36,051 nt of DNA from a virus (taxonomy: Duplodnaviria; Heunggongvirae; Uroviricota; Caudoviricetes): IMG/VR virus record IMGVR_UViG_2579778871_000005, one strand, 5' to 3'. Shown piece after piece: positions 259 to 35,649 of the stretch. The notes beneath the pieces were generated by a model. It was not told where the DNA came from, did not search any database, and saw nothing but the letters and a program-made list of their open reading frames with translations. The position numbers and the translations under genes were made by a program. Position 1 is the stretch's first letter, and each line of letters opens with the position of its first letter.

Positions 259-498
259 TATTTCTCTCCTCATAGATTTATGCCTGTAATGATCACGCTA
301 AAATGTATTCGCTGAAAGTAGGTTTAACCTGTTGCATTAATTGCTAAAAGCTATAACTGTTAAACACAATACAGTGAAAAGTTTTAGACTGAAGGCTCAC
401 TTTGCAGAGGGAAGCTAAAGCCGCGCGCGATAAATCGGCGCTAAAAACGCAATAAATAGCAGGCGGCTTTCATTTCAGTATGTGTAACAGATTTTCTC

Positions 499-1221
499 TT
501 ATTTAGGGTAAGCCTGAACTCGGAACAACTTACTGTTAAGATGCTGACGCGCACGTTTATCCAAAAAGCGGATATAGCGGAACTGTTTATAACGATGTCT
601 CGTTGCTTTATCCAGATTTGCTCGAAGGTACTCTCCGCGTTTGCCACCACGAACTAGCGCCGTTCTACATATCTCATGGTAAAACTCACCATCCAATTCA
701 TAAAACGTAGAGAAATGGCTACCGATGTAGTCAAAATTTGCAGCCTGATACACTACGCCTGAACGGCCACAACGCTCATCCGCAAATGTTTGAACCCATT
801 TAACTTGTGGATAAAGAATGGAGATGAGCTTCAGTGAGTAAGCTAAGACACGACTTTCAGTATTGCGGGGCTGGCTGTCGTGAATCCACATTCGATTGAG
901 TTCCATATACTCCCGGTTGCCGGTCCCGAGTACCACTCGTGCGCCGCTGTTGGGGTTTAATGCATAACCGAACTGTAATACTCCAACCAAATTTCTCCCC
1001 GCAAATACCCCGAGATGCAAGTAACTGTTGTTAACAAACCGCCTGGAATAATGCTTATCTTGAATAATAGACCTGGCCAGCCAGCAACTGATGGTTTCTA
1101 CACGCAGTTCTGTGCAACCATATCCCACGATATCATTCTGATCCTTGATTACGCCGCGAGGGCTTAATACACGAGAAACCTTTTGAGCCATAATAACCTC
1201 TCGTCTGGCGCTCAAAGGCAC
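499..1221 (-). CDS. mom: Mom-like DNA modification protein (start may be the internal Met at 1191)
   Basis: 240-aa ORF containing [13 protein letters not shown], which matches the Mom motif I recall from phage Mu (..IYKAANFRYLG..); sits immediately downstream of, and overlapping, a Com-like zinc-finger ORF as in the Mu com-mom operon. Confidence 0.7.
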
Positions 1222-1333
1222 TCAATTCGTTTACAAACCCGCAGCGCGGGCATTTTATTTGCACCTCAATAACCTGCCCCTTGAATAGCAGTTTTGAGCA
1301 TTGCGTACATCTGACATGCATTTTGTCTGTCAT
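1133..1333 (-). CDS. com: Com-like zinc-finger translational regulator of mom
   Basis: Sub-ORF of 1133..1501 starting at ATG 1333 ([36 protein letters not shown]...), a CxxC...CxxC zinc ribbon resembling Mu Com (..IRCKNCNKLLFKA..IRCPRCK..); its 3' end overlaps the mom start. Confidence 0.55.
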
Positions 1334-1378
1334 TCTGCAAACCTTTTTCAGTATGTGAAAAACTGATAGGCTTACCGG

Positions 1379-1394
1379 ACTGATGGCCATCAGT
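1379..1394. promoter_or_regulatory. Perfect 16-bp palindrome ACTGATGGCCATCAGT upstream of com (candidate regulator binding site)
   Basis: Read directly from the sequence in the 145-bp gap between the stop at 1479 and the com start at 1333; a second inverted repeat CCAGAGTC..GACTCTGG lies at 1439-1466. Confidence 0.3.
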
Positions 1395-1478
1395 GGCAGC
1401 CTTGGGCGGCTCGCAGGCGCATCCTGCGGGTTAGCTGGCCAGAGTCTGGTTGCAGCCTGACTCTGGTCGCTGTTTTCC

Positions 1479-1931
1479 CTATAACGTCTTATTTTGAACA
1501 CTACTGGCTAGCGCGTGGAGTATGTTAGGTGAGTAACGCCAGCTATCGACCAGTCCGAGGAAATCTGCACAAAACTCACTGCAGAAATACTTATCCTCTC
1601 GCCCACGATTGAAAACAACAAACCCCACAGCACCCAACCAGTCGTATTTCAATTGGTCATTTTGCTGGAAGAACTTCTCAACGCGGGCAGGTGATGCCCT
1701 TGTCAGTATCAAATCCCATTTATCGCGCGGCAGCGGCATTTGCTTGCAGCGCACCCCCTTGTCACGCACCGACGACGAATAACAAACAAACTCACCGTTA
1801 CCCAGGTCAACGGCCAGCTCGCAGTGAGAATACTCACCCCGCGTCACCAGTCGCGTCAGCCAGTCGGAAAGCCGTGCAAACCCATGATGATCTTCTCGCC
1901 CTTTATAGAACGCCAGATACACCTGCTTCAT
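1479..1931 (-). CDS. Permuted papain-like (YiiX/YaeF-type, NlpC/P60 superfamily) protein, putative
   Basis: ORF 1479..1940; likely ATG at 1931 overlapping the upstream stop (ATGA). His-containing motif YSHCELAV early and C-terminal Cys motif KYFCSEFC, the order expected for permuted papain-fold enzymes. Assignment by motif only. Confidence 0.45.
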   Translation of the reverse strand: MKQVYLAFYKGREDHHGFARLSDWLTRLVTRGEYSHCELAVDLGNGEFVCYSSSVRDKGVRCKQMPLPRDKWDLILTRASPARVEKFFQQNDQLKYDWLGAVGFVVFNRGREDKYFCSEFCADFLGLVDSWRYSPNILHALASSVQNKTL

Positions 1932-2554
1932 GGTTGCCACCCCGTGGAGTAGTCATACGCCTGAACTGCCTGGATATCTTCCAGCGCCTCAACGGCGGCA
2001 ATATGCCGCTGGGCATTGGCAAAGAGGCGCATATCGTGATCCATTGTAACGGACTCAAACTGCGCCGCGATTTCATTGGTCAGCTCAAGAAGTCCGAGGT
2101 TTTTGGTCTGCCACATTAAGCCTTTGGGGATTTGCTTTGCCTGTCCCATTTTAGTCAGTGACATCTGCTGGATACGGCTACTGGCATCGCTGTGGAAGTG
2201 GTAGTCACCAATCACAATATAATCGGCAGTGACTTCGTCTCGTTGTGCTTTTATCGCTTGTTTAACTTGCGATTTAGCGTTATTAAGCTCGAGGGCAAAT
2301 CTGGCTACGTCATATACCCATACCTTTCCGTCTAACCGGTAAAAATCCCCTGGGGGTAATGTGGTGGTAAACGTTCTGTCTTCAACATTAACCCAGACAT
2401 ATTCCCCTTGATTGAAATGTTCAAGCCATTGTTGCTCAGTTAATTCAATCAGACTTGTTCTCTCTGGATAACAGAATAACTCGGTATCCATCCAATCCAG
2501 AACACGTAAGGATGCAGGATCGTAGTAAGCATATTTTGACATTATCTTCACCAA
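1928..2554 (-). CDS. Tail fiber assembly protein (Tfa)
   Basis: 208-aa ORF immediately downstream of the tail fiber gene with overlapping start/stop; size, position and C-terminal ..YDYSTGW.. are typical of Tfa chaperones. Confidence 0.6.
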   Translation of the reverse strand: MVKIMSKYAYYDPASLRVLDWMDTELFCYPERTSLIELTEQQWLEHFNQGEYVWVNVEDRTFTTTLPPGDFYRLDGKVWVYDVARFALELNNAKSQVKQAIKAQRDEVTADYIVIGDYHFHSDASSRIQQMSLTKMGQAKQIPKGLMWQTKNLGLLELTNEIAAQFESVTMDHDMRLFANAQRHIAAVEALEDIQAVQAYDYSTGWQP

Positions 2555-4164
2555 TAAATTCTGACGATACCAGAAGAACCATTCGATCCATTATTAAGAA
2601 CCCAGTCACCTAGATACCCCCGGTTACTGGCACTGGAGCTACCACCTGCACCACCTGCACCGAAGCCATTTGCATTAGATGGTAATGAACCAGCTATTAT
2701 CTCTGAACGTTCTAATGTGACATTCCCAGGGATTCCACCTTTACCTAAGATAGAATCACTCCCTCTTAGCCCTAGAGTTACATACTCTTCCTTACGCCCG
2801 CCTCCATTCCCATCAGAGGGGAGAAATCTTATTACATTTCCTCCTGTACACCCTGCTACACCTCCATCACCACCTGGTACATTCAGATATGCAAAAGAGG
2901 ATTGTCCTCCAGCGTTCCCGTTATAACCTATACCTTGTGAGCCGCTGCCTTTCGCACCTCCGCTACCGCCTACACCAACCATTACAGGTATCTGACTTTT
3001 TGGTGCAACATCAACATAACCAGCAATACATCCGGCAGCGATTCCCCCTGTGGAACAAACATTATTTGCTGATGAACCTCCGGCTCCGCCACCACCACCA
3101 CCAACAACCTCAACAAAGATCTGCGTCACCCCATCCGGTACAGTAAAAGTCCCATTAGCCGTAAAAAACTGATAATGGGAGTGGTTGGCTGGAGCTGCCG
3201 CACTTGCCTTGTCATACGCCGCCTTAACTGCGCTCGGCGTCGCCGCTTCCGTCGTGCTGTTACTATTCGTAGAGCTATTAAGCTTCACAACTCCTTTCTG
3301 TGCCGTCGTGGCATCCGGAACGTCGGTAATTTGATTCCAGGGGTGCGAATGATTTCCCGCCGCCTTACCATTCGCCAGGTCATACGCCGCCTTAACAGCA
3401 CTCGGTGTCGCTGCCTCTGTCGTATTGGTACTGTTCGTCGCACTATTAAGCTTCACAACCCCTTTCTGCGCCGTAGTGCCATCCGGCACCCCGGTAATAT
3501 CGCCCCACGGATGTTTATGCGCTTTATCAGCCCCAGCTTTTTCCAGTGCCTCATTCGCCTTATCCATCGCCGCCTTCACCGCCTTCGGCGTTGCTGCCTG
3601 CGTTTCCAGCGTGCTATTGGTTGAGCTGTTAAGCTGCGTAAAGCCTTTCTGCGTCAGCGTCGCGTCCGGGTGATTATGCGATCTTTCGTGCTCTTCAATA
3701 CTGGAGTCCACATAATCTACCGTTGCCATCACCAGTGATGGATCAACCATCAATGTCACAGCCGCCGCGTTCGTCACCTCCATCACCGCACGGATCACAA
3801 TCTGCTTACTGGCCCCGGCAGGCAGCTTCGGCTTATAGGTTTCCGGGAACTTGCCAATGGCGATCAGTACGCCGTCCTTATCCAGCAATCCCACCTCGCG
3901 GATATACCAGCCGCCGACTGATTCCGGCAGTACCGCCTCGGCAATCACCCACGCCGGGTTTTCCGGGGCGATTTTCAGAGTATTCAGTGGCCCGCGCCAG
4001 ACTTCACGCACCACCTTTGTCTGGCTCTCTTTCGGTTCGGCATACTGCCCACCGCCGTCGCCAACGACCATTGTTTGCAGCACTATCTGCTTTTGTTCCG
4101 CCAACGCCGCCGCGATTTTCGCGCGGCCAGCGGCGGTTAAAATGGTAAAAAATTCACTCGCCAT
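2548..4164 (-). CDS. Tail fiber protein
   Basis: 538-aa ORF; N-terminus MASEFFTILTAAGRAKIAAA... resembles the conserved N-terminal domain of Mu S / P2 H-type fibers; three in-frame tandem repeats (..AQKGVVKLNSSTNS..TTEAATPSAVKAAYD..HSHPW..ITDVPD..) and a Gly-rich C-terminal domain. Confidence 0.8.
   Translation of the reverse strand: MASEFFTILTAAGRAKIAAALAEQKQIVLQTMVVGDGGGQYAEPKESQTKVVREVWRGPLNTLKIAPENPAWVIAEAVLPESVGGWYIREVGLLDKDGVLIAIGKFPETYKPKLPAGASKQIVIRAVMEVTNAAAVTLMVDPSLVMATVDYVDSSIEEHERSHNHPDATLTQKGFTQLNSSTNSTLETQAATPKAVKAAMDKANEALEKAGADKAHKHPWGDITGVPDGTTAQKGVVKLNSATNSTNTTEAATPSAVKAAYDLANGKAAGNHSHPWNQITDVPDATTAQKGVVKLNSSTNSNSTTEAATPSAVKAAYDKASAAAPANHSHYQFFTANGTFTVPDGVTQIFVEVVGGGGGGAGGSSANNVCSTGGIAAGCIAGYVDVAPKSQIPVMVGVGGSGGAKGSGSQGIGYNGNAGGQSSFAYLNVPGGDGGVAGCTGGNVIRFLPSDGNGGGRKEEYVTLGLRGSDSILGKGGIPGNVTLERSEIIAGSLPSNANGFGAGGAGGSSSASNRGYLGDWVLNNGSNGSSGIVRIYW
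3169..3663. repeat. Three tandem ~140-bp in-frame repeats inside the tail fiber gene
   Basis: Near-identical DNA blocks (for example gccgccttaac.gc.ctcgg.gtcgc.gc.tc.gtcgt...ctattaagcttcacaac.cctttctg.gccgt) recur at about 3230-3330 and 3375-3480, mirrored by the protein repeats. Confidence 0.7.
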
Positions 4165-4883
4165 TACTCCTCCGGGTAAACAGTGACAAACTCAATACTC
4201 CAGCAGCCCGCTCCAACACTCATAACGCTGGTCTGCTCAACATTGCCATGCAGCGGAGGCAACACCGTTACCACCTCTGCACTCAGACACTCCGTCGCCA
4301 GATAAACCGCAGACGACTGACTCACGCTCTCCGCAATCCACGGCAGAACGGTAGCGATCTCGCCGCCCTGAACCGCGCTGGCGATAACGGGGATCTGGCT
4401 CTGGTTAATCAGCCAGATAGTCAGCATCTCCAGCTTTGAGCGGACGTTCTTGTACTCATGGATCAGCACAATCAGCGCGTTAAATTCATCCTCAGTCAGC
4501 CCGCGCGTCTCAAGCGTCACACCCATGCGGAAAAAGTACGGCTTGCCGCCATACTCAAACCACTCGCTGATATCGCCGTCCAGTGCCAGAATCTTCAGTA
4601 CCTGACGCACAGCCCACGGCGTACCGCGATAGCGGTGCAGCTCAATGGCCTGCTTGATCAGATCGCGTTTCTGCCGCTCATTACGGGCGAACAGCCAGCC
4701 TTCCAGCCCCTGAACATGAAACTGTTCTGCCAGCGACGGTAGCGCCGTGGCGTCCACCAGATCCACTAGGTAAATCAGCAGCACAGTCAGATCGAGTTGT
4801 GCGAAGCGTTCGGCGGCAAGATTTGCCAGCCGGGTAAAGCGTTCATCCCCGGCCAGCGGCGGTTGAAGCGGTAACTTATCCAT
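4164..4883 (-). CDS. Tail/baseplate protein, P2 gpI-like
   Basis: 239-aa ORF between the baseplate J-like and tail fiber genes, the gpI position in P2-type tails; overlapping start/stop with neighbours. Confidence 0.65.
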   Translation of the reverse strand: MDKLPLQPPLAGDERFTRLANLAAERFAQLDLTVLLIYLVDLVDATALPSLAEQFHVQGLEGWLFARNERQKRDLIKQAIELHRYRGTPWAVRQVLKILALDGDISEWFEYGGKPYFFRMGVTLETRGLTEDEFNALIVLIHEYKNVRSKLEMLTIWLINQSQIPVIASAVQGGEIATVLPWIAESVSQSSAVYLATECLSAEVVTVLPPLHGNVEQTSVMSVGAGCWSIEFVTVYPEE

Positions 4884-5991
4884 CGCTCACCCCGGCGATG
4901 GTCACATCAATTGCGGTACACTGCGCCCACTCATGCGCCGCCAGCACTCGTTTGGCAGGCGTTTCCAGCGCCACGTCATAAACTCCCGCCACCTGCAACA
5001 CCTTGATGATTTGATTGGGGACGATATCCAGCCCCAGATGGCGCTCGCGTTCTGCCGTCCAGTCGGCGATGGCCCGCCGCGCGGCAAGCAGGGTTGAGTC
5101 CTGATCGGCTTTAGTGAACAGCGTGAGTTGCGCGTTAATCTGATATGCCACGCGGAGTGGTTTCTTCGCGCTCACCTTATCTGTCAGTGGGCGCTTTTTC
5201 TCTTTGCTGACGTCCTGTACCACCTGTGCGAGCAGTTCGTCTCCGGGCAGGCCGTCCTGCGTCAGCGGGTAAATCTCCACGCAACCTTCATCCAGCCCTT
5301 CATCCGGGCCGAGGATGGCCACGTCGATAATCGCCTGACTGACCGACAACGCATGAAAGCGGTACGCGCCATAACTGCCCGCGTTGCTGAAGCACTCCGG
5401 GGCCAGCCGGATACGCTCACGCAGGGCGTCGTCACCCTCATCGGCACATCCACCGCCTGAAGCAGTAATGTTCGTTACCTGCAAATCCACGCCCGCCACG
5501 CTGTCTACCAGTGCGCTAATCTGCGCCGGTTGCCAGTCATTACCAGGCTCACCAGCGGTGGTACAGGTGGCAGTCACATCCACGCTCAGGCTTCCGGCAG
5601 GCAGCAGCACGTCATCATCGGTGGCAAACATCACGCTGTTAGAGGCGCTGGCGCGGGTTCCCTCCGGGATCAACACATTGCGCTTTTGCGCCTTGGCAAC
5701 GGAGAATTGCAATGTGGTCTGCGCCGCTTGTGCGGGCAGGCGCTTCACACCCACCAGTTCGCCGAGATAATCGAGCATTGGCGCACGGGAAAACGCCACA
5801 AGGTTCTGCTTTGCCGCTTCCTGGATGCCGATGCGTACAAGGTTCTCACGGTAGGCAAAGACGTCTATCAGCAGCCGCTCCGCCTGCGCCGGATAGAGCG
5901 TTTTACCGCTGGCCGCTTCATACTGCGCAATCATCTCGCTGGTAATTTGCGCCGGGTCGCGGTCGATAAAATCGGGTTCATCTAACGCCAT
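4876..5991 (-). CDS. Baseplate protein, P2 gpJ-like
   Basis: 371-aa ORF downstream of the W-like gene; size and synteny (V-W-J-I-H) match a P2-type baseplate; assignment by synteny and general similarity. Confidence 0.7.
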   Translation of the reverse strand: MALDEPDFIDRDPAQITSEMIAQYEAASGKTLYPAQAERLLIDVFAYRENLVRIGIQEAAKQNLVAFSRAPMLDYLGELVGVKRLPAQAAQTTLQFSVAKAQKRNVLIPEGTRASASNSVMFATDDDVLLPAGSLSVDVTATCTTAGEPGNDWQPAQISALVDSVAGVDLQVTNITASGGGCADEGDDALRERIRLAPECFSNAGSYGAYRFHALSVSQAIIDVAILGPDEGLDEGCVEIYPLTQDGLPGDELLAQVVQDVSKEKKRPLTDKVSAKKPLRVAYQINAQLTLFTKADQDSTLLAARRAIADWTAERERHLGLDIVPNQIIKVLQVAGVYDVALETPAKRVLAAHEWAQCTAIDVTIAGVSDG

Positions 5992-6341
5992 ACCACCTCC
6001 GTTTCATTAATGACGCCATCAGCGGCACGCCACTGGATGCGCAGCGTGAGATGTTCGCCGTCCAGTTCCGGCACCACTTTCAGAAATTTGCAGCGCGGCT
6101 CCCATTGACGAATAGCCTCCACCGACTCACGCACCACATGCGGAATCGCCCGTTCAGCAGGCCAGTCGATATAGCGCCACAGGTCGCTGCCGAAAAAGGG
6201 ACGATGGGGATCGCTGCCGCGCGGTGTGCGCAGAATGATGTGAACGGCCTGGCTGATATCATCCAGCCCGCAGACGTATTCGCCGTCGCGTTTCAGGGCC
6301 GGTTGCCAGTGCAGATTTAAAGGATGGGATTGTGTGCTCAT
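5982..6341 (-). CDS. Baseplate wedge protein, P2 gpW / T4 gp25-like
   Basis: 119-aa ORF (MSTQSHPLNLHWQPALKRDGEYVCGLDDISQAVHIILRTPRGSDP...) of the size and position of gpW-family proteins. Confidence 0.65.
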   Translation of the reverse strand: MSTQSHPLNLHWQPALKRDGEYVCGLDDISQAVHIILRTPRGSDPHRPFFGSDLWRYIDWPAERAIPHVVRESVEAIRQWEPRCKFLKVVPELDGEHLTLRIQWRAADGVINETEVVWR

Positions 6342-6386
6342 GGGGGCATTGTCGCCCCCGGTGCTACAGCGCGGTATTAAACCGCT

Positions 6387-6878
6387 TTAATGAGAGTGAT
6401 GGTTGGTATTGCCGCCTGCGTCGATGATAGTGCCTGACGCATTGATATTGCCGTTAACCTGAATATTGCTATTAATCGTGGTCAGCGGTGCGGTAATAGT
6501 GATACTGGTTTTCACCTCAATCACGATTTTTTCAATGCCGCCATTAACGGTAAGTTGGTGCTGTTTGCGATCATACTCAATCGCGGCCTCATCGGAGAAC
6601 CTCACATAGCGCTTGTCTTTGTCAGTCACCGGCGGCGTATCGACCGACGAATAGACAGCCCCCAGCACCACGCCATCCTCGCCGTTATCATCCAGCAGAA
6701 CCTCCACCTGCTCGCCAATATCCGGGAGCCAGTAGTCCTTATTGTCCTGTGTATTGCGTTGCAGGATGGGGAGCCAGTTGGTACGCAGATCGTCGCATTC
6801 CGGCAGGGTGACGCGCACACACACCTTCACTTCGTCGATATCGCTGATAATACCGGTCTGTCGGGTTACGCCTTTCAT
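6387..6878 (-). CDS. Baseplate spike/assembly protein, P2 gpV-like
   Basis: 163-aa ORF upstream of the W-like gene with a beta-rich, repeat-like C-terminus (..ITITAPLTTINSNIQVNGNINASGTIID..) typical of spike proteins. Confidence 0.6.
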   Translation of the reverse strand: MKGVTRQTGIISDIDEVKVCVRVTLPECDDLRTNWLPILQRNTQDNKDYWLPDIGEQVEVLLDDNGEDGVVLGAVYSSVDTPPVTDKDKRYVRFSDEAAIEYDRKQHQLTVNGGIEKIVIEVKTSITITAPLTTINSNIQVNGNINASGTIIDAGGNTNHHSH

Positions 6879-7993
6879 TGTGTCTCCTGCGTTGTTGTAC
6901 CGTCAGGGTGATAAACGGTCAGGGTGTCGGGCTTTTTATTCTTACGTTTGCCGGAGCCAGAGCTGCTGCCCGCCGCCGTTTTCGGGCCGCGTCCAATCTC
7001 GATCTCCGTACTGTACCCTGATGAACGGTCGAACGAATGGCGGGCGCTGGTGATAAGCCACTCCCCGGAGAGCACTCCGAACCCGTCAAGATTGATTTTG
7101 TTCCCGGCGATAAGCTGCGTGTTACCCATCATGGAGAGCGAACCGGTCTGCTGATACTCGTTATGATCATCCAGCGCCGCCTCGGCTTTCACCTGTGCCG
7201 TCCCCTGATCCGCCGCCCGCGCATTGACCTTGAGCGTATCGGCGCTGGTTGATTTACCGCGTGGGGCGGTACTGCTACTGCCATCGGCGTTATAGGTGAT
7301 CAGTTCCTTATCCTTACTCTTCTGATGCGCCACCTTTGCATCCTTATAGATGCGGTTGATGGTATCGCGCAGCGACCATCGCGCCACATCCTGCGGCGTC
7401 AGCGTCGTCACCGGCGCATTGCTGCGCAGCGTGGCCAGATGGGAAAACACCAGCTCATCAGTGGTGACTTTCAGCGCGTAGCCATACTCACCCGCCAGTC
7501 GCTTCAGAAAGCCGACGTCTGTCTCCGCGTATTGCGTCACCCGATCAATAGTAATTGGCTCTATCTGGCCAACCAGCTTCAGGCCGTGCTTCTGTGCGAT
7601 ACGGCTGGCAATCGCATCCAGCGTCGTTTCTTCGTAGCCCTCGCTGGACGCGGTGCGCAGGGCGCTATTGACCGACGTCGCCACGCCGCGAATGGATACC
7701 GTATCCGGCGGTGCGCCCAGCTCAATCTCATCGATGGAGAACGATCCACAGTCCAGCAACGCTTCGCCCTGATAACCTAACTTCAGCATCAGCATATCGC
7801 CTTTGCCCGGATACCAGGCATCCCGCCAGCGCCCGGCAGTGTCTTCCACCTGCACGTCGATTTCATCCGACTCGCTCTTGAGACTGTCGGTATACGTCAC
7901 GCTCAGGACAAAAGGCGCAATATCGTGGGTGATATCTTTCTGCCCGTAAAACAGGGTGAAAACGGGGGTGATAACGGCATTTACCTGAGCCAC
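6875..7993 (-). CDS. Tail protein, P2 gpD-like (baseplate hub / late control D family)
   Basis: 372-aa ORF following the X-like and U-like genes after the tape measure, the P2 T-U-D order. Confidence 0.65.
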   Translation of the reverse strand: MAQVNAVITPVFTLFYGQKDITHDIAPFVLSVTYTDSLKSESDEIDVQVEDTAGRWRDAWYPGKGDMLMLKLGYQGEALLDCGSFSIDEIELGAPPDTVSIRGVATSVNSALRTASSEGYEETTLDAIASRIAQKHGLKLVGQIEPITIDRVTQYAETDVGFLKRLAGEYGYALKVTTDELVFSHLATLRSNAPVTTLTPQDVARWSLRDTINRIYKDAKVAHQKSKDKELITYNADGSSSTAPRGKSTSADTLKVNARAADQGTAQVKAEAALDDHNEYQQTGSLSMMGNTQLIAGNKINLDGFGVLSGEWLITSARHSFDRSSGYSTEIEIGRGPKTAAGSSSGSGKRKNKKPDTLTVYHPDGTTTQETQ

Positions 7994-11944: not shown

Positions 11945-11982
11945 GTTTTACACTCCCGAAAACCACACGAAAAAGAGGCGTT

Positions 11983-12261: not shown

Positions 12262-12335
12262 TCTGGGCGCTGGCCTCATCAAGCCAGCGTTCAAAATCCC
12301 CAACCGCCAGATTGTCAATTTCCCCCGGCTGAAAT

Positions 12336-24837: not shown

Positions 24838-24839
24838 GG

Positions 24840-28589: not shown

Positions 28590-28775
28590 ATGACAACCGA
28601 TCAGGTCAAAGCCCTCTTTCGTCAGCGCGGCGTTACCTTTACCCGCTGGGCAGAAGATAACGGTTACACCCGCAATGAGGTGTATCGCGTGCTTAATGGT
28701 CAGTCAAAAGCCAACTACGGAAAGGCGCATGAGATTGCCGTCAAACTTGGCCTTAAGTCCGGCATCGCCGCCTAG
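28590..28775 (+). CDS. Ner/Cro-like small DNA-binding protein (first early gene)
   Basis: 61-aa ORF opening the rightward operon opposite the repressor; HTH-like pattern (..RQRGVTFTRWAEDNGYTRNEVYRVLNG..). Confidence 0.5.
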   Translation: MTTDQVKALFRQRGVTFTRWAEDNGYTRNEVYRVLNGQSKANYGKAHEIAVKLGLKSGIAA

Positions 28776-28836
28776 ATTTTACAGTAAGTGTAACAGCGTT
28801 TCACATACAGAAAAGAGGCAACACAGGATAATCGTT

Positions 28837-29076
28837 ATGAAACCTACCGATTTAACCCCCGGCCAGCGCGTACTGATTACACCAGAGCTTGGCCCGAAAA
28901 CCCCGCTTCACGGTACTTTTCTCCGCCGCGTTCCGCGCCAGTGTGGTCGGGCGGCTTACAGCGTTTTTCGCATTGATGAATTTGTCGAGCAGAACGGGCC
29001 AGACGATAAAGGAGACACCCCGATGTCGGATTCCTGCATTTCCCGTCGGGTACAACCACTGGAGGTGCGTACATGA
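28837..29076 (+). CDS. Hypothetical early protein
   Basis: ORF 28675..29076; likely ATG at 28837 (MKPTDLTPGQRVLITPELGP...); stop overlaps the next start. Confidence 0.4.
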   Translation: MKPTDLTPGQRVLITPELGPKTPLHGTFLRRVPRQCGRAAYSVFRIDEFVEQNGPDDKGDTPMSDSCISRRVQPLEVRT

Positions 29077-29369
29077 AGGCTTCTACCTCCGGCGCACGCA
29101 TCCTTCGCGTACTCAAAGCCCTGAAAGGCTACTCGCTCACCGGGCTGTCCAATGGCGAACTAGCGGCGGCGTTGCATGAATCCCCGGCCAATATCACTCG
29201 TGCCGCTGACACTCTGATCGAAGAGGGCCTGGTACAACGGCTGGAAAATGGGCGCTTTGCCATGAGCATGGCGATGCTACAAATCGCCCACGCTCATGCG
29301 ACAGAAGTCACCCGCGCTCAGGACAGACTAAAAGAAATGAATCAACGCCTGCTGGCTGGCAGTCGATAA
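29073..29369 (+). CDS. Winged-helix DNA-binding protein, putative early regulator
   Basis: 98-aa ORF (..ILRVLKALKGYSLTGLSNGELAAALHESPANITRAADTLIEEGLVQR..), a pattern typical of winged-helix transcription factors. Confidence 0.45.
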   Translation: MKASTSGARILRVLKALKGYSLTGLSNGELAAALHESPANITRAADTLIEEGLVQRLENGRFAMSMAMLQIAHAHATEVTRAQDRLKEMNQRLLAGSR

Positions 29370-29379
29370 GGAGTAAGCA

Positions 29380-30330
29380 ATGGCACGTCAAAAATCACAA
29401 CCCGCCGAACTGGTGCCGGATGCGCCGCTGGACGCCGAACTGAACGTCGGACTGAATGCGCTGGCGGAACACCGCATTGAGATTATGCAACAGTTCGGTG
29501 ACGGCCTGCCGTATGAGCGTGACCGCGTGGTGCATGAGGCACGGTTTTATATGTCGCAGAGCGCCGAGGCAATGCTGGAAGCGGGTAAGCGGCTGGTGAT
29601 ACTGAAAGAGAATGAACCGCATGGGGAGTTCACGGCAATTGTCACTGAACAGTTGGGGCTAGGTGACCGGGCTGCACGCCGTATGATGCAGGCGTCTATT
29701 AAGTACCTTTCACCTACGCTTGAGTCAAAACGGCCAACGTTGGCCGTTTTGGGTAAGGCTAAATTATTTGAACTGGTATCAGAGGATGACGAAGACCTTA
29801 CAGCATTAGCCGAAGGCGGCACCGTCGCTGGCCTGACACTGGACGACGTAGATCGCATGAGCTGCCGCGAACTCCGCGCCGCTCTGCGTGAAGCCCGCGA
29901 GGACGCCGACGCCCAGCGCCGCGTTCTGTCCGATAAGAATGACAAAATTGACAAACTCTCCACCCTGCTCGCCAAAAAGTCCCGAATCGCGCCGCCGCCC
30001 CCGGATGTAGAGGACGAGCAGTTGCGTAAGGAAGTCATGGCTATCGCCTTCGAAGCTGAAGCCATTATTCGCGGCAAGCTCTATGAGGCCTTCACCGTAT
30101 TGAATCAGCATCATTCGGAACTGGTTCAGACGCATCCCTACGCCTTTATGACGGGCCTGCTGTGTCAGATTGACAGCGCCACCACCTATCTGCGCGAAGA
30201 GTTTGGCCTTGCTGCTGAACCACGCAGTGACGCCGCGCCGGAGTGGGTAACAGACCCCACGCCAGAGATTGATCGCCCGGAATGGATGAATGCTTCAGAT
30301 TCAGAACCTGTTCAGGCGGATTGTATATGA
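29380..30330 (+). CDS. DUF3102-like early protein
   Basis: 316-aa ORF directly upstream of the transposase; motif ..GKRLVILKENEPHGEFTAIVTEQLGLGDRAARRMMQAS.. matches the pattern I associate with DUF3102 proteins of Mu-like phages. Confidence 0.55.
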   Translation: MARQKSQPAELVPDAPLDAELNVGLNALAEHRIEIMQQFGDGLPYERDRVVHEARFYMSQSAEAMLEAGKRLVILKENEPHGEFTAIVTEQLGLGDRAARRMMQASIKYLSPTLESKRPTLAVLGKAKLFELVSEDDEDLTALAEGGTVAGLTLDDVDRMSCRELRAALREAREDADAQRRVLSDKNDKIDKLSTLLAKKSRIAPPPPDVEDEQLRKEVMAIAFEAEAIIRGKLYEAFTVLNQHHSELVQTHPYAFMTGLLCQIDSATTYLREEFGLAAEPRSDAAPEWVTDPTPEIDRPEWMNASDSEPVQADCI

Positions 30331-32072
30331 GCGCCGTCATGACCGAACGCTTAGTTGCTTTTGCTCAGGCTGCGCGGCAGGCCGGGCATGGTACACGAGG
30401 CGCAATCTATGCTGCCGCCTGCGCGGAGTTGGGCCTTTCCCGCGCCACGCTGTTACGCAAAATCAAGGAAGTCGCCGTGACTGATAATCGTAAGCGCAGA
30501 ACAGACGCAGGGAAAACCGCGCTGACCCGCGACGAGGCGGTGATGATATCCGCGACACTGATGGAAGCCACTCGTAAGAACGGCAAGCGCCTGTATTCCG
30601 TCGCCGACGCCGTGGAAATGTTACGCGCCAACAACGAAATTGACGCCGGGCGACTGGATGAAGAATCCGGTGAATGGATGCCGTTGTCGGAAAGCACCAT
30701 TATCCGGGCGCTACGCGGCTACGGCCTGCACCCGGATCAGCTCAGTCAGCCCGCGCCGGTGACGGAACTCGCCAGCCTGCACCCCAATCACGTCTGGGAA
30801 ATCGACGCCTCGCTCTGCACGTTGTACTACCTCAGCAATGGACAGCATGGCTTACAGGTGATGGACAGTTCGAAGTTCTACAAGAACAAGCCGAAGAATC
30901 TGCAACGTATCGCCAGTGACCGGGTATGGAGTTACGAACTGACCGACCACACCAGCGGCTGGATCTACGTTGAATACGTGATGGGCGCGGAGTCTGGCGA
31001 GAATCTTTGCTCAGTGCTGATAAACGCCATGCAGGAGCGCGGCGGCGCGGATGTGCTTCACGGCGTACCGCATATGCTGTATCTCGACCCCGGCTCGGCT
31101 AACACCGCGGCCATGACCAAAAACCTCTGCCGTTCGCTGGGCATTGACGTGGTAGCACATAAAGCCCACAACGCCCGCGCCACCGGGCAGGTGGAAAAGG
31201 CGCGTGACATTATCGAGCGCCGCTTTGAACCGGGGCTGAAGTTCCAACCGGTTCATAGTCTGGAGGAACTGAACGCCAAAGCGAAGCTGTGGCGGCAGCA
31301 CTTCAACGCCACCGCCATTCACACTCGCCACGGCAAGTCGCGTAGTAACGTCTGGATGACCATCACCACGCAACAGCTTATCAAAGCGCCATCGGTGGAT
31401 GTATGCCGCGAACTGGCCGTTGCCGCGCCGGAAAGCCGCAAGGTAACACCAAAGCTGCGCGTCTCCTTCCGGGGCGCTGAATATGATGTGTCGTCGGTGC
31501 CGGGTGTGATGGTGGGTGAGAAACTGATGATCACCCGCAATCCGTGGCGCACTGACGCTGCGCAGGTAGTTCTTATCGGCGACGATGGCCATGAGTATTT
31601 TCATCTGGTGGAAGAAGTTCGTAAGAATGAATACGGCTTTGCCCAGGATGCTGCGGTACTGGGCCAGAACCATAAGCGCCACGCCGATACACCAGCGCAG
31701 ACTGCTGCTAAACAAATTGAGCAGATTGTTACCGAAACGGATAACGAGACTGACGCAGCCGCTGCGCGTAAAGCGAAGGCGCTGCCGTTCGGCGGCAGGC
31801 TCGACCCGTACAAACCGATCACCGACAGCGAACTCCCCGCGTTCCTACCGCGTCGCGGCCAGGATTCTCTGGTACGCGCCCCACGTATTGAGGAAAGGCT
31901 TTTAACTCACGTTGAAGCTGCGAAGGCGCTGAAAGCGCGTCTGCCGGAATGGAGCGTAGCAGTGTATCAGGAACTGGTGAAACGCTGGCCAGAAGGCGTG
32001 GCGGAAGAAGAACTGGACGCCGCCGCGCAGCAGCTTACCGCCCGAGTGCAACTGAACGTAGTCGGTGGTTAA
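30327..32072 (+). CDS. DDE transposase (Mu A-like function, integrase-core fold)
   Basis: ORF 30282..32072; ATG at 30327 overlaps the upstream stop (ATGA); candidate catalytic residues in ..VWEIDASLC.., ..LYLDPGSANT.. and a downstream Glu; followed by an AAA+ ATPase gene, the transposase/ATPase pairing of Mu, IS21 and Tn7-type elements. Confidence 0.8.
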   Translation: MSAVMTERLVAFAQAARQAGHGTRGAIYAAACAELGLSRATLLRKIKEVAVTDNRKRRTDAGKTALTRDEAVMISATLMEATRKNGKRLYSVADAVEMLRANNEIDAGRLDEESGEWMPLSESTIIRALRGYGLHPDQLSQPAPVTELASLHPNHVWEIDASLCTLYYLSNGQHGLQVMDSSKFYKNKPKNLQRIASDRVWSYELTDHTSGWIYVEYVMGAESGENLCSVLINAMQERGGADVLHGVPHMLYLDPGSANTAAMTKNLCRSLGIDVVAHKAHNARATGQVEKARDIIERRFEPGLKFQPVHSLEELNAKAKLWRQHFNATAIHTRHGKSRSNVWMTITTQQLIKAPSVDVCRELAVAAPESRKVTPKLRVSFRGAEYDVSSVPGVMVGEKLMITRNPWRTDAAQVVLIGDDGHEYFHLVEEVRKNEYGFAQDAAVLGQNHKRHADTPAQTAAKQIEQIVTETDNETDAAAARKAKALPFGGRLDPYKPITDSELPAFLPRRGQDSLVRAPRIEERLLTHVEAAKALKARLPEWSVAVYQELVKRWPEGVAEEELDAAAQQLTARVQLNVVGG

Positions 32073-32081
32073 GGGGGAGTT

Positions 32082-33206
32082 ATGCAGATTAAACAACAGT
32101 TGCGCCAGCGTGGCATCACTCAGGCAGCAGTAGCACAGGCTACCGGGGTTTCCGCAGCGGTTATCGCGCAGATGGTTAATCACGGCCTGTGGCCGAAAAC
32201 AGAAGAACTACGGGAGCGCATCAGCGCATTTTTGGCAGAAAAAGGTATTGAACTGAAAGTGGGACAGGCAGCGGCCACTGCCTGCCCCGATACCGCATCC
32301 ACAAGGGACGAAAATATGTTACTGGCAAAACAGGTATTAAATCCAGCGGCGAAGAAACATTTTGGGCTGTTCCGCGACCCGTTCGCTGATGAAGTCATGC
32401 AGAGCGCGGACGATGTATTCACCACGCCGGATATCCGTTATGTGCGCGAGGCGCTGTACCAGACTGCGCGTCACGGCGGGTTTATTGCGGTGACAGGTGA
32501 ATCCGGCGCAGGGAAAACCACGCTGCGCCGTGACCTGGCTGACCGCATCAACCGCGAAAACGCGCCCGTTATCATCATCGAGCCGTATATCATCGCGATG
32601 GAAGACAACGACGCAAAGGGTAAAACCCTGAAAGCTGCCGCCATAGCAGAAGCCATCATCAACACCATCGCGCCGCTGGAGAACGTCAAACGCTCGCAGG
32701 AGGCGCGTTATCGCCAGTTGCACCGGGTGCTAAAGGAATCGGCCCGTGCCGGGTTCTCACATTGCCTTGTTATCGAAGAGGCGCACTCGCTGCCGGTGCC
32801 GACGCTCAAGCACCTGAAACGCTTCTTTGAGCTGGAAGATGGCTTTAAGAAACTGCTGTCGATAGTGCTGATTGGTCAGCCTGAACTGAAGCTGAAACTG
32901 TCCGAACGTAATCAGGAAGTGCGTGAAGTGGTTCAACGTTGCGAGGTTGTCGAACTGCTGCCGCTGGACAACTATCTGGAATCGTTTCTGGCGTTTAAAT
33001 TTCAGCGTGCCGGAAAAGGAGTTTCAGAGGTGCTGGATGATAGCGCCGCCGATGCTATCCGCGCCCGGCTGTGCAATTCATCCCGACGCGGTGACGTCAG
33101 TCTGCTGTACCCGCTGGCGCTGGGGAATCTGGTTATCGCTGCAATGAATCTGGCTGCTGATATCGGCGTACCCGTAGTGAATGCCGATGTGATTAAAGGA
33201 GTGTGA
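32082..33206 (+). CDS. Transposition ATPase (Mu B-like AAA+ protein) with N-terminal HTH
   Basis: 374-aa ORF; Walker A ..VTGESGAGKTTL.. and Walker B-like ..HCLVIEEAHSL..; N-terminal HTH-like segment (..LRQRGITQAAVAQATGVSAAVIAQMVN..). Confidence 0.8.
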   Translation: MQIKQQLRQRGITQAAVAQATGVSAAVIAQMVNHGLWPKTEELRERISAFLAEKGIELKVGQAAATACPDTASTRDENMLLAKQVLNPAAKKHFGLFRDPFADEVMQSADDVFTTPDIRYVREALYQTARHGGFIAVTGESGAGKTTLRRDLADRINRENAPVIIIEPYIIAMEDNDAKGKTLKAAAIAEAIINTIAPLENVKRSQEARYRQLHRVLKESARAGFSHCLVIEEAHSLPVPTLKHLKRFFELEDGFKKLLSIVLIGQPELKLKLSERNQEVREVVQRCEVVELLPLDNYLESFLAFKFQRAGKGVSEVLDDSAADAIRARLCNSSRRGDVSLLYPLALGNLVIAAMNLAADIGVPVVNADVIKGV

Positions 33207-33208
33207 AA

Positions 33209-33337
33209 ATGGTATTTCACAAATTAACCGGAAAGGACGTGATGCAATACCGCAAGATATCGCTGGCTGACCGTTTTGTATTATGGGCCAGCGCTATAAC
33301 TACACTGATTTTTATATTCATAGCCTTATTTAATTAA
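33209..33337 (+). CDS. Possible 42-aa single-TM peptide (below the ORF-track size cutoff)
   Basis: ATG at 33209 preceded by AAGGAG (33196-33201); translation MVFHKLTGKDVMQYRKISLADRFVLWASAITTLIFIFIALFN; lies in the 200-bp gap after the ATPase gene. Hand-translated. Confidence 0.3.
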   Translation: MVFHKLTGKDVMQYRKISLADRFVLWASAITTLIFIFIALFN

Positions 33338-33408
33338 TTCAGGTCGCAGAAAAATGCCGTCAACCCGGCAGGCTTCGCACACCCTGAAATCACCCTGGAG
33401 ACTATTTT

Positions 33409-34026
33409 ATGACTGAAAAAACTATCCCCGCAGGTTACTGGCAGGACGCCAAAGGTTGTCTGGTTCCCGAGTCTATGATCAAGCCCATTGACCGCGCACG
33501 CGATGCGCTGGTGAAGGAGATCGTCGCCGACGCAATGAAAATGAATGCTGAATTACTTGAGTTTAAAAACCGCTGTTTTGGCGATATACAGGCGTTTATT
33601 GATTTGTCCGTTGAACAATATGATGCCCGCCCCGGAGGCAAGAAAGGCAACATCACCCTGCATTCATTTGATGGTCGCTACAAGATCCAGCGCCAGATTG
33701 CCGAAAACATCGCCTTTGATGAACGGTTACAAGCCGCCCGTAACTTGATTGATGAGTGCCTGCATGAGTGGACGGCACAGGCCACGCCAGAGCTGAAGGT
33801 CATTGTGGAGAAAGCATTCGCAGAAGATAAAGAGGGCAACATCTCCACCGGGCGCGTACTGGCGCTGCGCCGCTATGAAATCACCGACCCGCGCTGGCTG
33901 AAGGCGATGGAGGCCATTGGCGAGTCGGTACAGGTGGTGAACTCAACAAGTTACGTGCGGGTTTATCAGCGCATCGGTGATAGCGATAAATACCAGCCCG
34001 TCGTGCTGAATATTGCGGGGGTGTGA
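33409..34026 (+). CDS. DUF3164-like early protein
   Basis: 205-aa ORF in the semi-essential early region; size and position match the DUF3164 proteins common in Mu-like phages; assignment by recollection. Confidence 0.5.
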   Translation: MTEKTIPAGYWQDAKGCLVPESMIKPIDRARDALVKEIVADAMKMNAELLEFKNRCFGDIQAFIDLSVEQYDARPGGKKGNITLHSFDGRYKIQRQIAENIAFDERLQAARNLIDECLHEWTAQATPELKVIVEKAFAEDKEGNISTGRVLALRRYEITDPRWLKAMEAIGESVQVVNSTSYVRVYQRIGDSDKYQPVVLNIAGV

Positions 34027-34027
34027 G

Positions 34028-34222
34028 ATGGCGACGATTAAATGTGTGTACTGCAAAAAAGAAGTCACTGAACTGGATTTTCAGCAGGCCAGCTTATTTC
34101 AGACTGATGAATATAAGGAGTGGTGTGTAAATTTAATTTTGCTCTGTCCGCACTGCGAGCAGGCTTATAACGCCTTTATTCCCACGATGGAATTAACCCC
34201 GGCAACGGAGGTAGGCGCATGA
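34028..34222 (+). CDS. Small zinc-ribbon protein
   Basis: ORF 34013..34222 (first codon TTG); ATG at 34028 gives MATIKCVYCKK...LLCPHCEQAY with a CxxC...CxxC arrangement. Confidence 0.45.
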   Translation: MATIKCVYCKKEVTELDFQQASLFQTDEYKEWCVNLILLCPHCEQAYNAFIPTMELTPATEVGA

Positions 34223-34497
34223 AAACGCTTATCTACCGTGCAGCCTTACTCAAGTGGGGGCCGGAGAAACAACTGGCGAAGCTGGCCGAGGAAGCAGCCG
34301 AACTCAGCGCCGCAGCCGCGCGTGGTTTGACAGGCTTCTGTGATGAAGCTGTGCTGGCGGAGGAGATTGCCGATGTGGAAATCATGATCGAACAGTTCCG
34401 GCAGAACGGTATGGACAAGCTAATCGATTATCGAAAAGCGAAAAAGCTGGCGCGGCTGGCAGAATGGTTGGGAGTAGTAAATGATGATGTTTGTTAA
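34219..34497 (+). CDS. MazG-like nucleotide pyrophosphohydrolase, putative
   Basis: 92-aa ORF with EExxE-type acidic motifs (..LAEEAAELSAAAARG.., ..EEIADVEIMIEQ..) characteristic of small all-alpha MazG-family proteins. Confidence 0.55.
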   Translation: MKTLIYRAALLKWGPEKQLAKLAEEAAELSAAAARGLTGFCDEAVLAEEIADVEIMIEQFRQNGMDKLIDYRKAKKLARLAEWLGVVNDDVC

Positions 34498-34774
34498 ATG
34501 CCCAGCCTGCGGGAAATATGCCGAGAAAGAAGTACCGTTTCGCATTGGCGACAAAGTGAGTTTTGCCTGGCAGCAAGTATCTATGAGCGCTCGTAACACT
34601 CGCATCAGAATAACGACAAAAACAGGGAAAATAACCAGCGTCAATAATGATTCAGCGGTTGTCCGTTCCCGTGGCAAGGATTACTGCCTCGATAAAAGCT
34701 GCATATCTCCAGCAAATGAACCATCGGTATTAACCGTAAGGATGGTTGGGATCTGCCAGTGTGCTGACGTGTAG
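34481..34774 (+). CDS. Hypothetical early protein with N-terminal CxxC
   Basis: 97-aa ORF (MMMFVKCPACGKYAEKEVPF...) overlapping the end of the MazG-like gene. Confidence 0.4.
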   Translation: MMMFVKCPACGKYAEKEVPFRIGDKVSFAWQQVSMSARNTRIRITTKTGKITSVNNDSAVVRSRGKDYCLDKSCISPANEPSVLTVRMVGICQCADV

Positions 34775-34828
34775 CCACATTGATCATCCGGCGGTTGTGC
34801 CTGTCATAACCGCCTCACGGAGGAATGA

Positions 34829-35233
34829 ATGAACAGAGCACAATTATTGCGGGTTATCCATGTTGCCCGGCGAGAGCTGCGACTGGATGAGGCTACGTAT
34901 CGACAATTACTCAAAACACACTGCGGCGGGGAATCATTACGGGTAATGAGCGACTCACAACTGGCTAAGGCTTTCGCTGTGATGAAAAAACAGGGCTTCA
35001 AAGTCACATCTAAAGAGCCTCCTTCCTATGATAAGCAGTCTGCGATGATCCGCGCATTATGGAAGGAACTGGCGTCCAGCGGTACGGTTAGAGATGGCAG
35101 TTTGTCAGCGTTAAATAAGTTCGTACAGCGCCAGACAGGTGTCGCCCGGCTTGAGTGGCTGAATAATCAACAGGCTAGCCAGGTGATTGAACAACTGAAA
35201 AAATGGCTGGCGCGTGTCGGGAGGAGAAGATGA
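34829..35233 (+). CDS. GemA-like protein (Mu gp16 family)
   Basis: 134-aa ORF; ..LLRVIHVARRELRLDEATYRQLLK..., the pattern I recall for GemA-family proteins, located immediately upstream of mor as in Mu; GGAGG before the ATG. Confidence 0.55.
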   Translation: MNRAQLLRVIHVARRELRLDEATYRQLLKTHCGGESLRVMSDSQLAKAFAVMKKQGFKVTSKEPPSYDKQSAMIRALWKELASSGTVRDGSLSALNKFVQRQTGVARLEWLNNQQASQVIEQLKKWLARVGRRR

Positions 35234-35610
35234 AAGAACCGCAACAGCCAGAAATCTTTGCTGACCTTGCGCACCATGTCGCGAGCACGTTGCAAGAAAT
35301 GGTTGGAATGGAAGATGATATAGCTGAACAAATTGCTGTAGCTGTTGCTAACCGCATGATGCAAGCATGGGGCGGGCAAACCATCTACCTGCCCAAAGGC
35401 ATGGTCTTCATGACATCGGCGCGGGACTACAAAATCTGGCAGGAGTGTGATGGACGCAACTACCGCGAACTGGCGAAGAAGTACAACCTGACTTTGCAGT
35501 GGATCTACAAAGTAGTGAAAAAGATCCAGCGTTCTGAAAGCGCCCGCCGACAACTCCCATTATTCTCTATCACTGATGAACCTGAAGCAGTAAAATCAAC
35601 CCTGAAGTGA
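35230..35610 (+). CDS. mor: Mor-like transcriptional activator (Mor/C family)
   Basis: ORF 35203..35610; ATG at 35230 overlaps the gemA-like stop (ATGA), preceded by GAGGAG; C-terminal ..RDYKIWQECDGRNYRELAKKYNLTLQWIYKVVKK.. matches the Mor/C-family HTH region. Confidence 0.65.
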   Translation: MKEPQQPEIFADLAHHVASTLQEMVGMEDDIAEQIAVAVANRMMQAWGGQTIYLPKGMVFMTSARDYKIWQECDGRNYRELAKKYNLTLQWIYKVVKKIQRSESARRQLPLFSITDEPEAVKSTLK

Positions 35611-35614
35611 TTAA

Positions 35615-35649
35615 TGAAACGAGGTCGTAATGATGTTGGCCTCGTTTCA
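35615..35649. repeat. Inverted repeat (10-bp arms TGAAACGAGG / CCTCGTTTCA, 15-bp spacer) at the prophage right end
   Basis: Read directly from the sequence; starts 5 nt after the mor stop; the right arm ends in CA at 35649 and overlaps the 9-bp word TTTCAGTAT also present at 473-481. Confidence 0.5.

Follow-up and report, generated by a model that had tools for sequence, protein, structure and literature searches.

A BcepMu-type transposable prophage with TA tips between grxA and ybjC of Escherichia coli

The insertion and its boundaries

How did 35,340 bp of phage DNA come to separate grxA from ybjC, two divergent neighbours on the Escherichia coli chromosome, and where exactly does that DNA begin and end? 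The question is raised by IMG/VR record IMGVR_UViG_2579778871_000005, here called the window (the whole stretch analysed, 36,051 nucleotides). The window is E. coli chromosome, and both of its outer thirds match genomes OkiPb01694 (bovine, Japan) and A35 (rat) at 100%. The insert at 416-35755 is very likely a complete transposable (Mu-like) prophage of the BcepMu family that entered the grxA-ybjC region by DDE transposition.

Just two of 5,426 complete E. coli genomes, OkiPb01694 and A35, carry the insert, at the same place in both, and a further IMG/VR contig (IMGVR_UViG_2728369607_000010) has the window sequence too. The PGAP annotation of OkiPb01694 reads grxA, about 50 phage genes, then ybjC, nfsA and rimK. 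In K-12 MG1655, grxA and ybjC are divergent and adjacent, with 159 bp between them, and K-12 aligns to the window with zero mismatches over 1-415 and 35756-36051. The alignment confirms a first-pass annotation, made from the window alone, that had placed phage DNA in this divergent intergenic region. The exact flank matches delimit the insert to 416-35755, and its GC content is 54% against 45% in the flanks. The hexamer GGAAGC, present as a single copy in K-12 (GAGGGAAGCGTATG; the empty site runs ...CAGAGGGAAGCGTATG into ybjC), stands on both sides of the insert as a 6-bp direct duplication. Among the 5,426 genomes, the terminal stretches 416-520 and 35611-35756 occur only in the two prophage carriers; their absence from the other 5,424 marks them as element DNA rather than host DNA. 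The junctions are the same in five independent assemblies, which excludes an assembly artefact. No tRNA gene is present in the window. A 5-bp, Mu-like duplication (GAAGC) was considered and dropped because six bases are duplicated and a 6-bp register brings the right tip into line with that of every relative; clean 6-bp duplications in two relatives further oppose it. The locus is laid out as follows.

1-258, minus strand: host grxA (glutaredoxin 1), from PGAP and identical to K-12, with its upstream region intact for 157 bp to the insertion
410-415: left copy of the target-site duplication GGAAGC, found once in K-12 and twice here
416-35755: BcepMu-type transposable prophage, 35,340 bp, delimited by the K-12 empty site, the uniqueness of the end sequences and in-register alignment with the BcepMu termini
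35756-35761: right copy of the target-site duplication GGAAGC, which still provides the ribosome-binding site of ybjC
35764-36051, plus strand: host ybjC, first gene of the ybjC-nfsA operon, from PGAP and the K-12 comparison

Relationship to BcepMu and Mu

A gene-by-gene tblastn comparison finds BcepMu (Bcepmuvirus; NC_005882) homologues for about 40 of the 50 phage genes, with order and orientation kept; the BcepMu map is the reverse complement of the window map. Homologues span essentially the full length of nearly every gene, and all of the roughly 50 genes are intact. The early genes (28590-35610) all lie on the plus strand. The repressor, cargo, lysis, head, tail and com/mom genes (499-28494, with the late genes at 499-25130) all lie on the minus strand, as the first-pass annotation had described and PGAP bears out. 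Besides this divergent architecture, the element shares with BcepMu a Mu-like head, a P2-like tail and two-site terminal repeats in the same register. It differs in its TA tips, in carrying com-mom in place of the acyltransferase gp53, in a TerL of 27% identity, in other cargo between repressor and holin, and in its E. coli host. The resemblance to BcepMu-type phages noted in the first-pass annotation is upheld by homology and by synteny in the phage-by-phage genome comparison. The element is a further member of an already described type, not a new kind of system, and is ordinary for the BcepMu group save for TA ends that are common to its closest relatives. Average protein identity to BcepMu of about 40-70% suggests a different species, probably of a different genus.

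The closest deposited sequences are PhiKM, KP12 clone 2 and a BcepMu-like prophage common in E. coli; they have the same layout, a 6-bp duplication and structural proteins that are mostly 55-80% identical, and the nearest deposited phage has about 75% transposase identity. This PhiKM-type group differs in having TG...CA ends, an invertase with alternative fibres for com-mom, another TerL type and, in the cargo slot, a Dam methylase in place of the window's nucleoid-protein cassette. Approximately 525 complete E. coli genomes match the right third of the window at 60-80%; the prophage and its insertion site were checked in two of them, CFS3292 and AW1.7.

Mu itself has counterparts only of Mom, Com, GemA, Mor, TerS, TerL, the portal, F, G, gp36, one baseplate protein and a stretch of the tail fibre. 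Membership of Muvirus, with a rearrangement that turned the early arm around, would fit the Mom protein, 72% identical to that of Mu, and the GemA, Mor, TerS, portal, F and G homologues at 24-41%, yet tblastn detects nothing similar to MuA, to MuB or to the tail genes of Mu. The divergent layout, common to BcepMu, PhiKM, KP12 and hundreds of prophages, and a duplication of 6 bp against the 5 bp of Mu likewise speak against such an origin, which is very improbable. The two phages are alike in their probably shared transposable lifestyle and in having com-mom at the tail-fibre end; Mu differs in a transposase and ATPase unrelated in sequence, in genes that run in one direction and in tail genes of its own. 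The first-pass annotation's inverted early arm is accordingly half right: the divergence stands, while a rearranged Mu does not, because the layout is the normal BcepMu design and the transposase has no detectable MuA similarity.

Transposition machinery and mode of insertion

Two adjacent early genes encode the predicted transposition machinery.

30327-32072, plus strand: transposase TnpA with an rve-type DDE core (D160, D254, E290), from homology, Pfam, NCBIfam, PHROG and alignment
32082-33206, plus strand: AAA+ transposition ATPase, a MuB/IstB-like partner (AAA_22, E=1e-20; PHROG 296, E=2e-90)

TnpA, an rve-type transposase of the Tn552/IS1604-like kind, is 68.6% identical to BcepMu gp09 over the full length, 69% to its phiE255 counterpart and 74-77% to those of Escherichia phage PhiKM (classified in Bcepmuvirus), Klebsiella KP12 clone 2 and Phi06_2974 B; identity to Pseudomonas B3-type phages is 57-59%. 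It also matches the NCBIfam IS481 and IS21 transposase models and PHROG 310 ("transposase", E=8e-132). An alignment of 24 relatives, BcepMu among them, shows no variation at D160, D254 or E290; the D254-E290 spacing corresponds to DD(35)E, and the gene has no internal stop codon. The ATPase is 60% identical to BcepMu gp08, again over the full length, and PHROG 296 is described as "DNA transposition protein". These results substantiate the pairing of an integrase-core DDE transposase with an AAA+ ATPase that the first reading had proposed. Sequence searches of solved structures with TnpA and the ATPase gave nothing significant.

The PGAP annotation contains no integrase gene. Together with the 6-bp duplication and the presence of relatives in gadC, adiA and an SLC13-permease gene, this points to transposition rather than site-specific integration. 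The CFS3292 relative lies inside gadC between copies of a 6-bp duplication, CGTTGC (...CGTTGC/TGATGCGCC...TCTAATCA/CGTTGC, slashes marking the junctions), and the AW1.7 relative lies inside adiA, also with a 6-bp duplication (GTAGCT/TGATTAG...GCGCATCA/GTAGCT). Both have TG...CA tips. Across 53 IMG/VR ends of BcepMu type, every flank is different. gadC and adiA are acid-resistance genes, so that the two examined copies of the common E. coli BcepMu-like prophage interrupt, and would abolish, those functions.

Matches to P2 are limited to tail proteins (sheath, tube, D, V, W, J, I and the N-terminal half of H), at 29-47%. These genes, and the fact that all copies of the phage sit at one site, could be accounted for by a conventional P2-like temperate myovirus with a tyrosine or serine integrase at an att site between grxA and ybjC, but the element has no integrase or excisionase and none of the P2 head, lysis, replication or cos functions. 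The junction has no tRNA and a duplication of no more than 6 bp, relatives are found in various unrelated genes, and a transposase-ATPase pair is present, which leaves a P2-like integrating phage (Peduoviridae) the least probable of the explanations considered.

For the transposable prophage, the expected course of events begins with TnpA, which would have joined the element to a staggered cut in the target, giving the 6-bp duplication GGAAGC 2 bp upstream of the ybjC start. On induction, going by the biology of the family, TnpA and the ATPase would spread copies of the genome to many sites through replicative transposition, Mor would switch on the late genes, and a headful terminase would package integrated copies along with flanking host DNA.

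Termini and TA tips

The ends of the element, compared with those of BcepMu, read as follows.

416-460, plus strand: left end, terminus 5'-TAAAGCC, with repeats GCGATAAATC at 427-436 and CGCAATAAATAGC at 448-460
35708-35755, plus strand: right end, terminus ...TTCTGATTA-3', with repeats CCCATAATTATCGTGC (35708-35723) and GGTTTATCTCAC (35735-35746)
BcepMu left end: TGAAGAGAGGTGAGATATTTCC...CGCGATATTTCC, in register with the window right end
Window right end, reverse complement from 35755: TAATCAGAAGTGAGATAAACCC...CACGATAATTATGG
BcepMu right end, reverse complement: TGAAGCGCGGCGCGATATTTCA...CGCGATAAATTC, in register with the window left end
Window left end, from 416: TAAAGCCGCGCGCGATAAATCGG...CGCAATAAATAGC

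Each end bears two ATAAAT/GATAA-type motifs, approximately 11-21 and 33-45 bp from the tip and inverted between the ends, which are presumed to be TnpA binding sites. The ends form imperfect terminal inverted repeats, with two site repeats each, in register with both BcepMu ends. The left end aligns with the right end of BcepMu and with the left ends of the CFS3292 element (L008) and of two TA-ended relatives (L329 and L370). The right end matches the Mor-side ends of relatives column for column, with flanks diverging beyond, and a multiple alignment of five Mor-side ends has one common stop column followed by divergent flanks. The first-pass annotation had set the ends at 483 and 35649, and this proved wrong: the DNA outside those positions aligns with the BcepMu termini, and the true ends are 416 and 35755. 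The earlier ends were apparently picked as TG...CA, while the true ends are TA...TA; assuming TG...CA would misplace the boundaries by 67 and 106 bp.

The window tips, 5'-TAAAG...GATTA-3', depart from the TG...CA of the family in that the 3'-CA of the transferred strand is replaced by 3'-TA at both ends, with the neighbouring site repeats conserved. TG...CA tips are characteristic of BcepMu-related elements (PMC2628397). The window phage lacks this terminal hallmark and keeps the remainder of the terminal repeat. CA is present at about 27 of 29 Mor-side ends from species-representative genomes and at all 53 genuine two-site ends in IMG/VR. The degenerate end-motif scans behind the IMG/VR count (15 specified bases) returned mostly chance matches and were filtered on the second site repeat; another scan, based on the R2 site, produced nothing but chance matches inside a coding region. 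Exceptions to CA are a Brenneria alni prophage and a few close relatives of the window phage. The Brenneria alni prophage (L014, about 13820-13992) ends ...TTTTGATTA with a partly degenerate terminal site and may be decaying. The closest species-representative relative, from Lelliottia wanjuensis (L010, 13215-13400; TnpA 86%), ends ...GGGATCA, and its terminal site is heavily mutated; it may be a decaying copy.

Three relatives in IMG/VR (2654587726_000019, 2579778940_000019 and 2571042289_000005), at 85-91% nucleotide identity over the tail genes, have the same terminal sequences as the window phage, TA tips included. They differ from it in lying at other sites (the SLC13-permease gene and a TTATCA target) and in carrying a Dam-like methylase for com-mom. 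The TnpA of one TA-ended relative is 95% identical to that of the window phage; that of another is 88% identical over its best segment and is frameshifted. IMGVR_UViG_2571042289_000005 (76-87% nucleotide identity) reads ...CTTCTGATTA/TTATCAGAAT on its Mor side and TCA/TAAAGCCGCG... at its other end, and these junctions, ...GATTA/TTATCA and TCA/TAAAGCC, fit a 6-bp duplication of TTATCA at another site. The second element, 2654587726_000019 (L329; 91% nucleotide identity over the tail genes), ends ...CGCGCGGCTTTA, i.e. ...GGCTTTA; its tip abuts an E. coli SLC13-permease gene beside nagE, and some 1,000 E. coli empty sites match its flank from exactly the next base. As judged from these junctions, TA-tipped elements have inserted at three or more sites.

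Because close relatives share the TA tips at other insertion sites, the tips are most likely native, working ends of a small subclade and not the product of decay. An enterobacterial TA subclade whose rve-type transposase naturally cleaves and joins 3'-TA, and which is still mobile, is on balance probable. No residue of TnpA was found that convincingly tracks TA against CA tips, in a comparison spoiled by the one frameshifted tnpA of the TA clade.

Several points weigh against the picture of a transposed and still mobile element. The match of TnpA to Pfam rve (E=8e-7, 29.7 bits) falls slightly under the gathering score of 32.6. The 6-bp duplication size of the family comes from junction analyses of three elements plus a partial fourth. 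All known copies of the exact phage (2 complete genomes, 1 metagenome contig and 24 further assemblies) lie at grxA-ybjC: a search with the right-end sequence of the element finds in IMG/VR only the window itself, plus one metagenome contig at the same site, and an exact look-up of the Mor protein gives 24 contigs, all at ybjC. With a single known site, the window copy can only be presumed mobile. In the TA-ended 2571042289_000005, tnpA (L469, 6001-7745) is split into open reading frames of 204 and 364 amino acids, through either a frameshift or an error in sequencing, and a defect in that copy is possible. The CA dinucleotide is reportedly important for the cleavage and joining of Mu ends, a result ascribed to Lee and Harshey in 2001. 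Given that role in Mu and the 3'-CA characteristic of BcepMu-related elements (PMC2628397), TA tips could lower activity.

Taken furthest, these points describe a grounded prophage, in which transposition was abolished when the terminal CA changed from C to T at each end, leaving only vertical inheritance. The single insertion site, the near universality of CA elsewhere (in the genome and IMG/VR ends counted above), the broken tnpA of one TA-ended relative and the degenerate terminal site at the other TTA end, that of Brenneria alni, are all compatible with it. Random decay, however, would hardly make the same substitution at both tips and spare the adjoining sites; the TA-ended close relatives occupy at least two other insertion sites, so TA ends have transposed; and about 50 intact genes and a conserved DDE triad are at odds with a disabled element. 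Grounding is therefore unlikely, and the TA tips are read as a subclade variant that leaves the working of the element unchanged.

A further repeated feature lies just inside the termini.

473-490, plus strand: subterminal quasi-palindrome TTTCAGTATGTGTAACAG, with a second copy, TTTCAGTATCTGAAAAG, at 35645-35661

The two copies lie 58-111 bp inside the termini, in the same plus-strand orientation at both ends. Relatives have a similar motif, CACATACTG(T/A)AA, close to their ends, with CACATACTGTAAG near their Mor end, and the motif recurs about 20 nucleotides upstream of the methylase gene in the relatives' end slot. A third site for the transposase or a host factor and a late-promoter element are candidate roles.

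Exchanged genes: com-mom, TerL and cargo

Three parts of the genome depart from the BcepMu pattern, and a fourth feature lies beside the cargo genes.

499-1390, minus strand: com-mom DNA-modification module (mom 499-1191; com 1133-1390 as annotated)
21062-22378, minus strand: large terminase subunit gene, TerL
25196-27432, minus strand: low-GC cargo operon (YejK/NA37 protein 26401-27432; 402-residue protein 25196-26404; 4-bp overlap)
27510-28031, minus strand: 173-residue protein with a lipoprotein-type signal (..LLMVGC), 66% identical to KP12_283

Mom matches the Pfam Mom family (E=6e-71). Com is 32% identical to Mu Com and retains the zinc-finger CxxC...CxxC; com overlaps mom as in Mu. The true start of com is probably 1333 (MTDKMHVRC...) rather than that of the annotated 85-residue open reading frame, and similarity to the TA-ended relatives stops exactly at 1333. 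Mu has three GATC sites upstream of com (L006, 35600-35780). No GATC lies upstream of the window com; the sole GATC in 1000-1700 is at 1140, where com and mom overlap. Control of mom of the Dam/OxyR type is therefore probably missing. The same end slot holds the acyltransferase gp53 in BcepMu, an invertase and alternative fibres in PhiKM-type phages, and a Dam-like methyltransferase in the TA-ended relatives (L370, 12600-13372; L329, 6970-7742; L330, 12730-13503). A Dam-like methylase in one member and com-mom in another indicate that the slot swaps DNA-modification genes.

TerL has complete Terminase_6N and 6C domains, yet it is only 25-28% identical to the TerL proteins of BcepMu (27%, gp28), PhiKM and KP12, while the flanking TerS and portal are at 61-76%. 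Its best matches are in other Mu-like phages: Pasteurella phage AFS-2018a (65%) and the marine Mu-like phages of Alteromonadaceae (63.5%) and Rhodovulum (60%). By these identities, TerL has been swapped for one of another Mu-like lineage, and its neighbours TerS and portal belong with BcepMu.

The cargo operon has a GC content of 0.41-0.46 and no homologues in BcepMu, PhiKM or KP12. Its nucleoid-associated protein matches Pfam NA37 (E=5e-73), and its 402-residue partner has two C-terminal transmembrane helices by hydropathy; both have strong PHROG families. Type II PANGU pairs a nucleoid-protein sensor with a membrane effector that has an N-terminal DNA-mimic domain (bioRxiv 10.64898/2026.04.06.716658), and a YejK domain has been validated in defence by DefensePredictor. 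The cassette resembles the type II PANGU/DS1 anti-phage systems in architecture, as a two-gene operon of an NA37/YejK protein and a partner whose N-terminal domain is soluble and whose C terminus is anchored in the membrane, and may accordingly serve in defence. The likeness is one of architecture: the two proteins match the NCBIfam DS1_1 and DS1_2 models at E=4e-18 and 1e-20, with scores of 66 and 74 bits that are far under the cut-offs of 330 and 315, and PADLOC v2 finds no match in the cargo genes.

Head, tail and lysis genes

The late genes read from the tail-fibre end towards lysis as follows.

1479-4164, minus strand: tail-fibre region from PGAP, comprising a conserved 150-residue moron (1479-1931), a DUF4376 tail-fibre assembly protein (1928-2542) and tail fibre H (2548-4164)
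4164-14651, minus strand: P2-like contractile tail (I, J, W, V, D, X, U-like, tape measure, E/E', tube, sheath)
14641-22926, minus strand: Mu-like head and packaging genes (gp38/37/36-like, DUF2190, major head protein, protease/scaffold, Mu G, Mu F, portal (DUF935), TerL and TerS (DUF3486))
22928-25130, minus strand: lysis cassette from PGAP, 28-63% identical to BcepMu gp21-gp26, with holin (24840-25130), SLT transglycosylase endolysin (24103-24825), an Rz-like gene (23541-24113) and two small conserved proteins

Gene-by-gene comparison and PHROG matches corroborate the Mu-like head and P2-like tail that had been recognised from the sequence. Most head and packaging proteins are 43-69% identical to BcepMu gp27-gp38, with matches to PHROGs 1005 and 976; identity to Mu is 24-41% for TerS, TerL, portal, F, G and gp36. 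The tail module is 41-69% identical to BcepMu gp39-gp51 and 29-38% to P2 FI, FII, D, V, W, J and I, with the N-terminal half of H reaching 47% to P2 gpH. The claim that the tail follows P2 gene order holds within two blocks, FI-FII-E-E'-T-U..D and V-W-J-I-H-tfa; it fails for the relative order of the blocks, which is opposite in P2, and for X, which lies elsewhere.

The U-like 327-residue open reading frame at 8199-9182 matches PHROG 788 (E=7e-93) and the gpU-like proteins of PhiKM and KP12 over its full length, so that the truncated "phage tail protein" pseudogene of PGAP (8745-9182) looks like an annotation artefact. In the tail-chaperone pair at 12236-12638 (minus strand), an E-like protein of 100 residues and an E'-like protein of 41 residues overlap. 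The E' frame stays open as far back as 12478, in keeping with a programmed frameshift, for which a search for a canonical slippery heptamer gave none. The 150-residue protein encoded between com and the gene for tail-fibre assembly is conserved in the relatives with TA ends; it matches PHROG 1128 (moron category, E=2e-55) and no Pfam family.

Regulation and neighbouring host genes

The repressor and the early operon face each other across a short switch region.

28144-28494, minus strand: Cro/CI-type (DicA-like) repressor (Pfam HTH_19, NCBIfam DicA), 39% identical to BcepMu gp17
28495-28589: divergent switch region with a candidate early promoter, TTGAAA-17-CATAAT (28512-28540, plus strand), from a consensus scan
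28590-30330, plus strand: start of the early operon, with genes for a small DNA-binding protein (28590-28775), a 79-residue protein, a MarR/IclR-like regulator (29073-29369) and a DUF3102 protein (29380-30330)
33409-35610, plus strand: remainder of the early/middle operon from PGAP, with DUF3164, small proteins, a MazG-like pyrophosphatase, GemA (34829-35233) and the late activator Mor (35230-35610)
35612-35652, plus strand: 13-bp inverted repeat just after mor, from a repeat search; a possible terminator that has no T-run and departs from the terminator consensus

The candidate early promoter, a 10 of 12 match to sigma-70, lies in the 95-bp gap between the repressor and the 28590 gene. Proteins at the start of the early operon are 36-46% identical to BcepMu gp16, gp12 and gp10, the last gene showing a Pfam DUF3102 match, and those of the remaining part are 44-65% identical to gp05, gp02 and gp01.

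The insertion point is upstream of both host genes, 157 bp from the start of grxA and 2 bp from that of ybjC. ybjC-nfsA is driven by a SoxS-dependent promoter (Paterson et al., as summarised in PMC11936445). This native class I promoter is now 35.3 kb away from ybjC, and nfsA(-rimK) is likewise separated from it. A scan of 35300-35800 finds neither a sigma-70 consensus promoter nor a canonical terminator. With the SoxS promoter lost and no consensus promoter in the adjoining 455 bp of phage DNA, less NfsA is possible, and lysogens can reasonably be predicted to express nfsA at a lower level or independently of SoxS. NfsA is the main nitrofuran-activating reductase, and lysogens may show altered nitrofuran susceptibility.

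Significance

The element provides a fully delimited example of the BcepMu type in E. coli, with exact ends, a target duplication and a gene-by-gene map. If its cargo were a system of the PANGU/DS1 kind, sensing through a nucleoid-associated protein, it would be a case of prophage-borne defence. The rare TA subclade provides a natural system for testing what the terminal dinucleotide contributes to DDE transposition. If the subclade is indeed still mobile, it would be an exception to the CA rule of its family, of Mu and of other CA-ended rve-type elements, and would offer a matched CA/TA pair of transposases and ends with which to probe the function of the dinucleotide.

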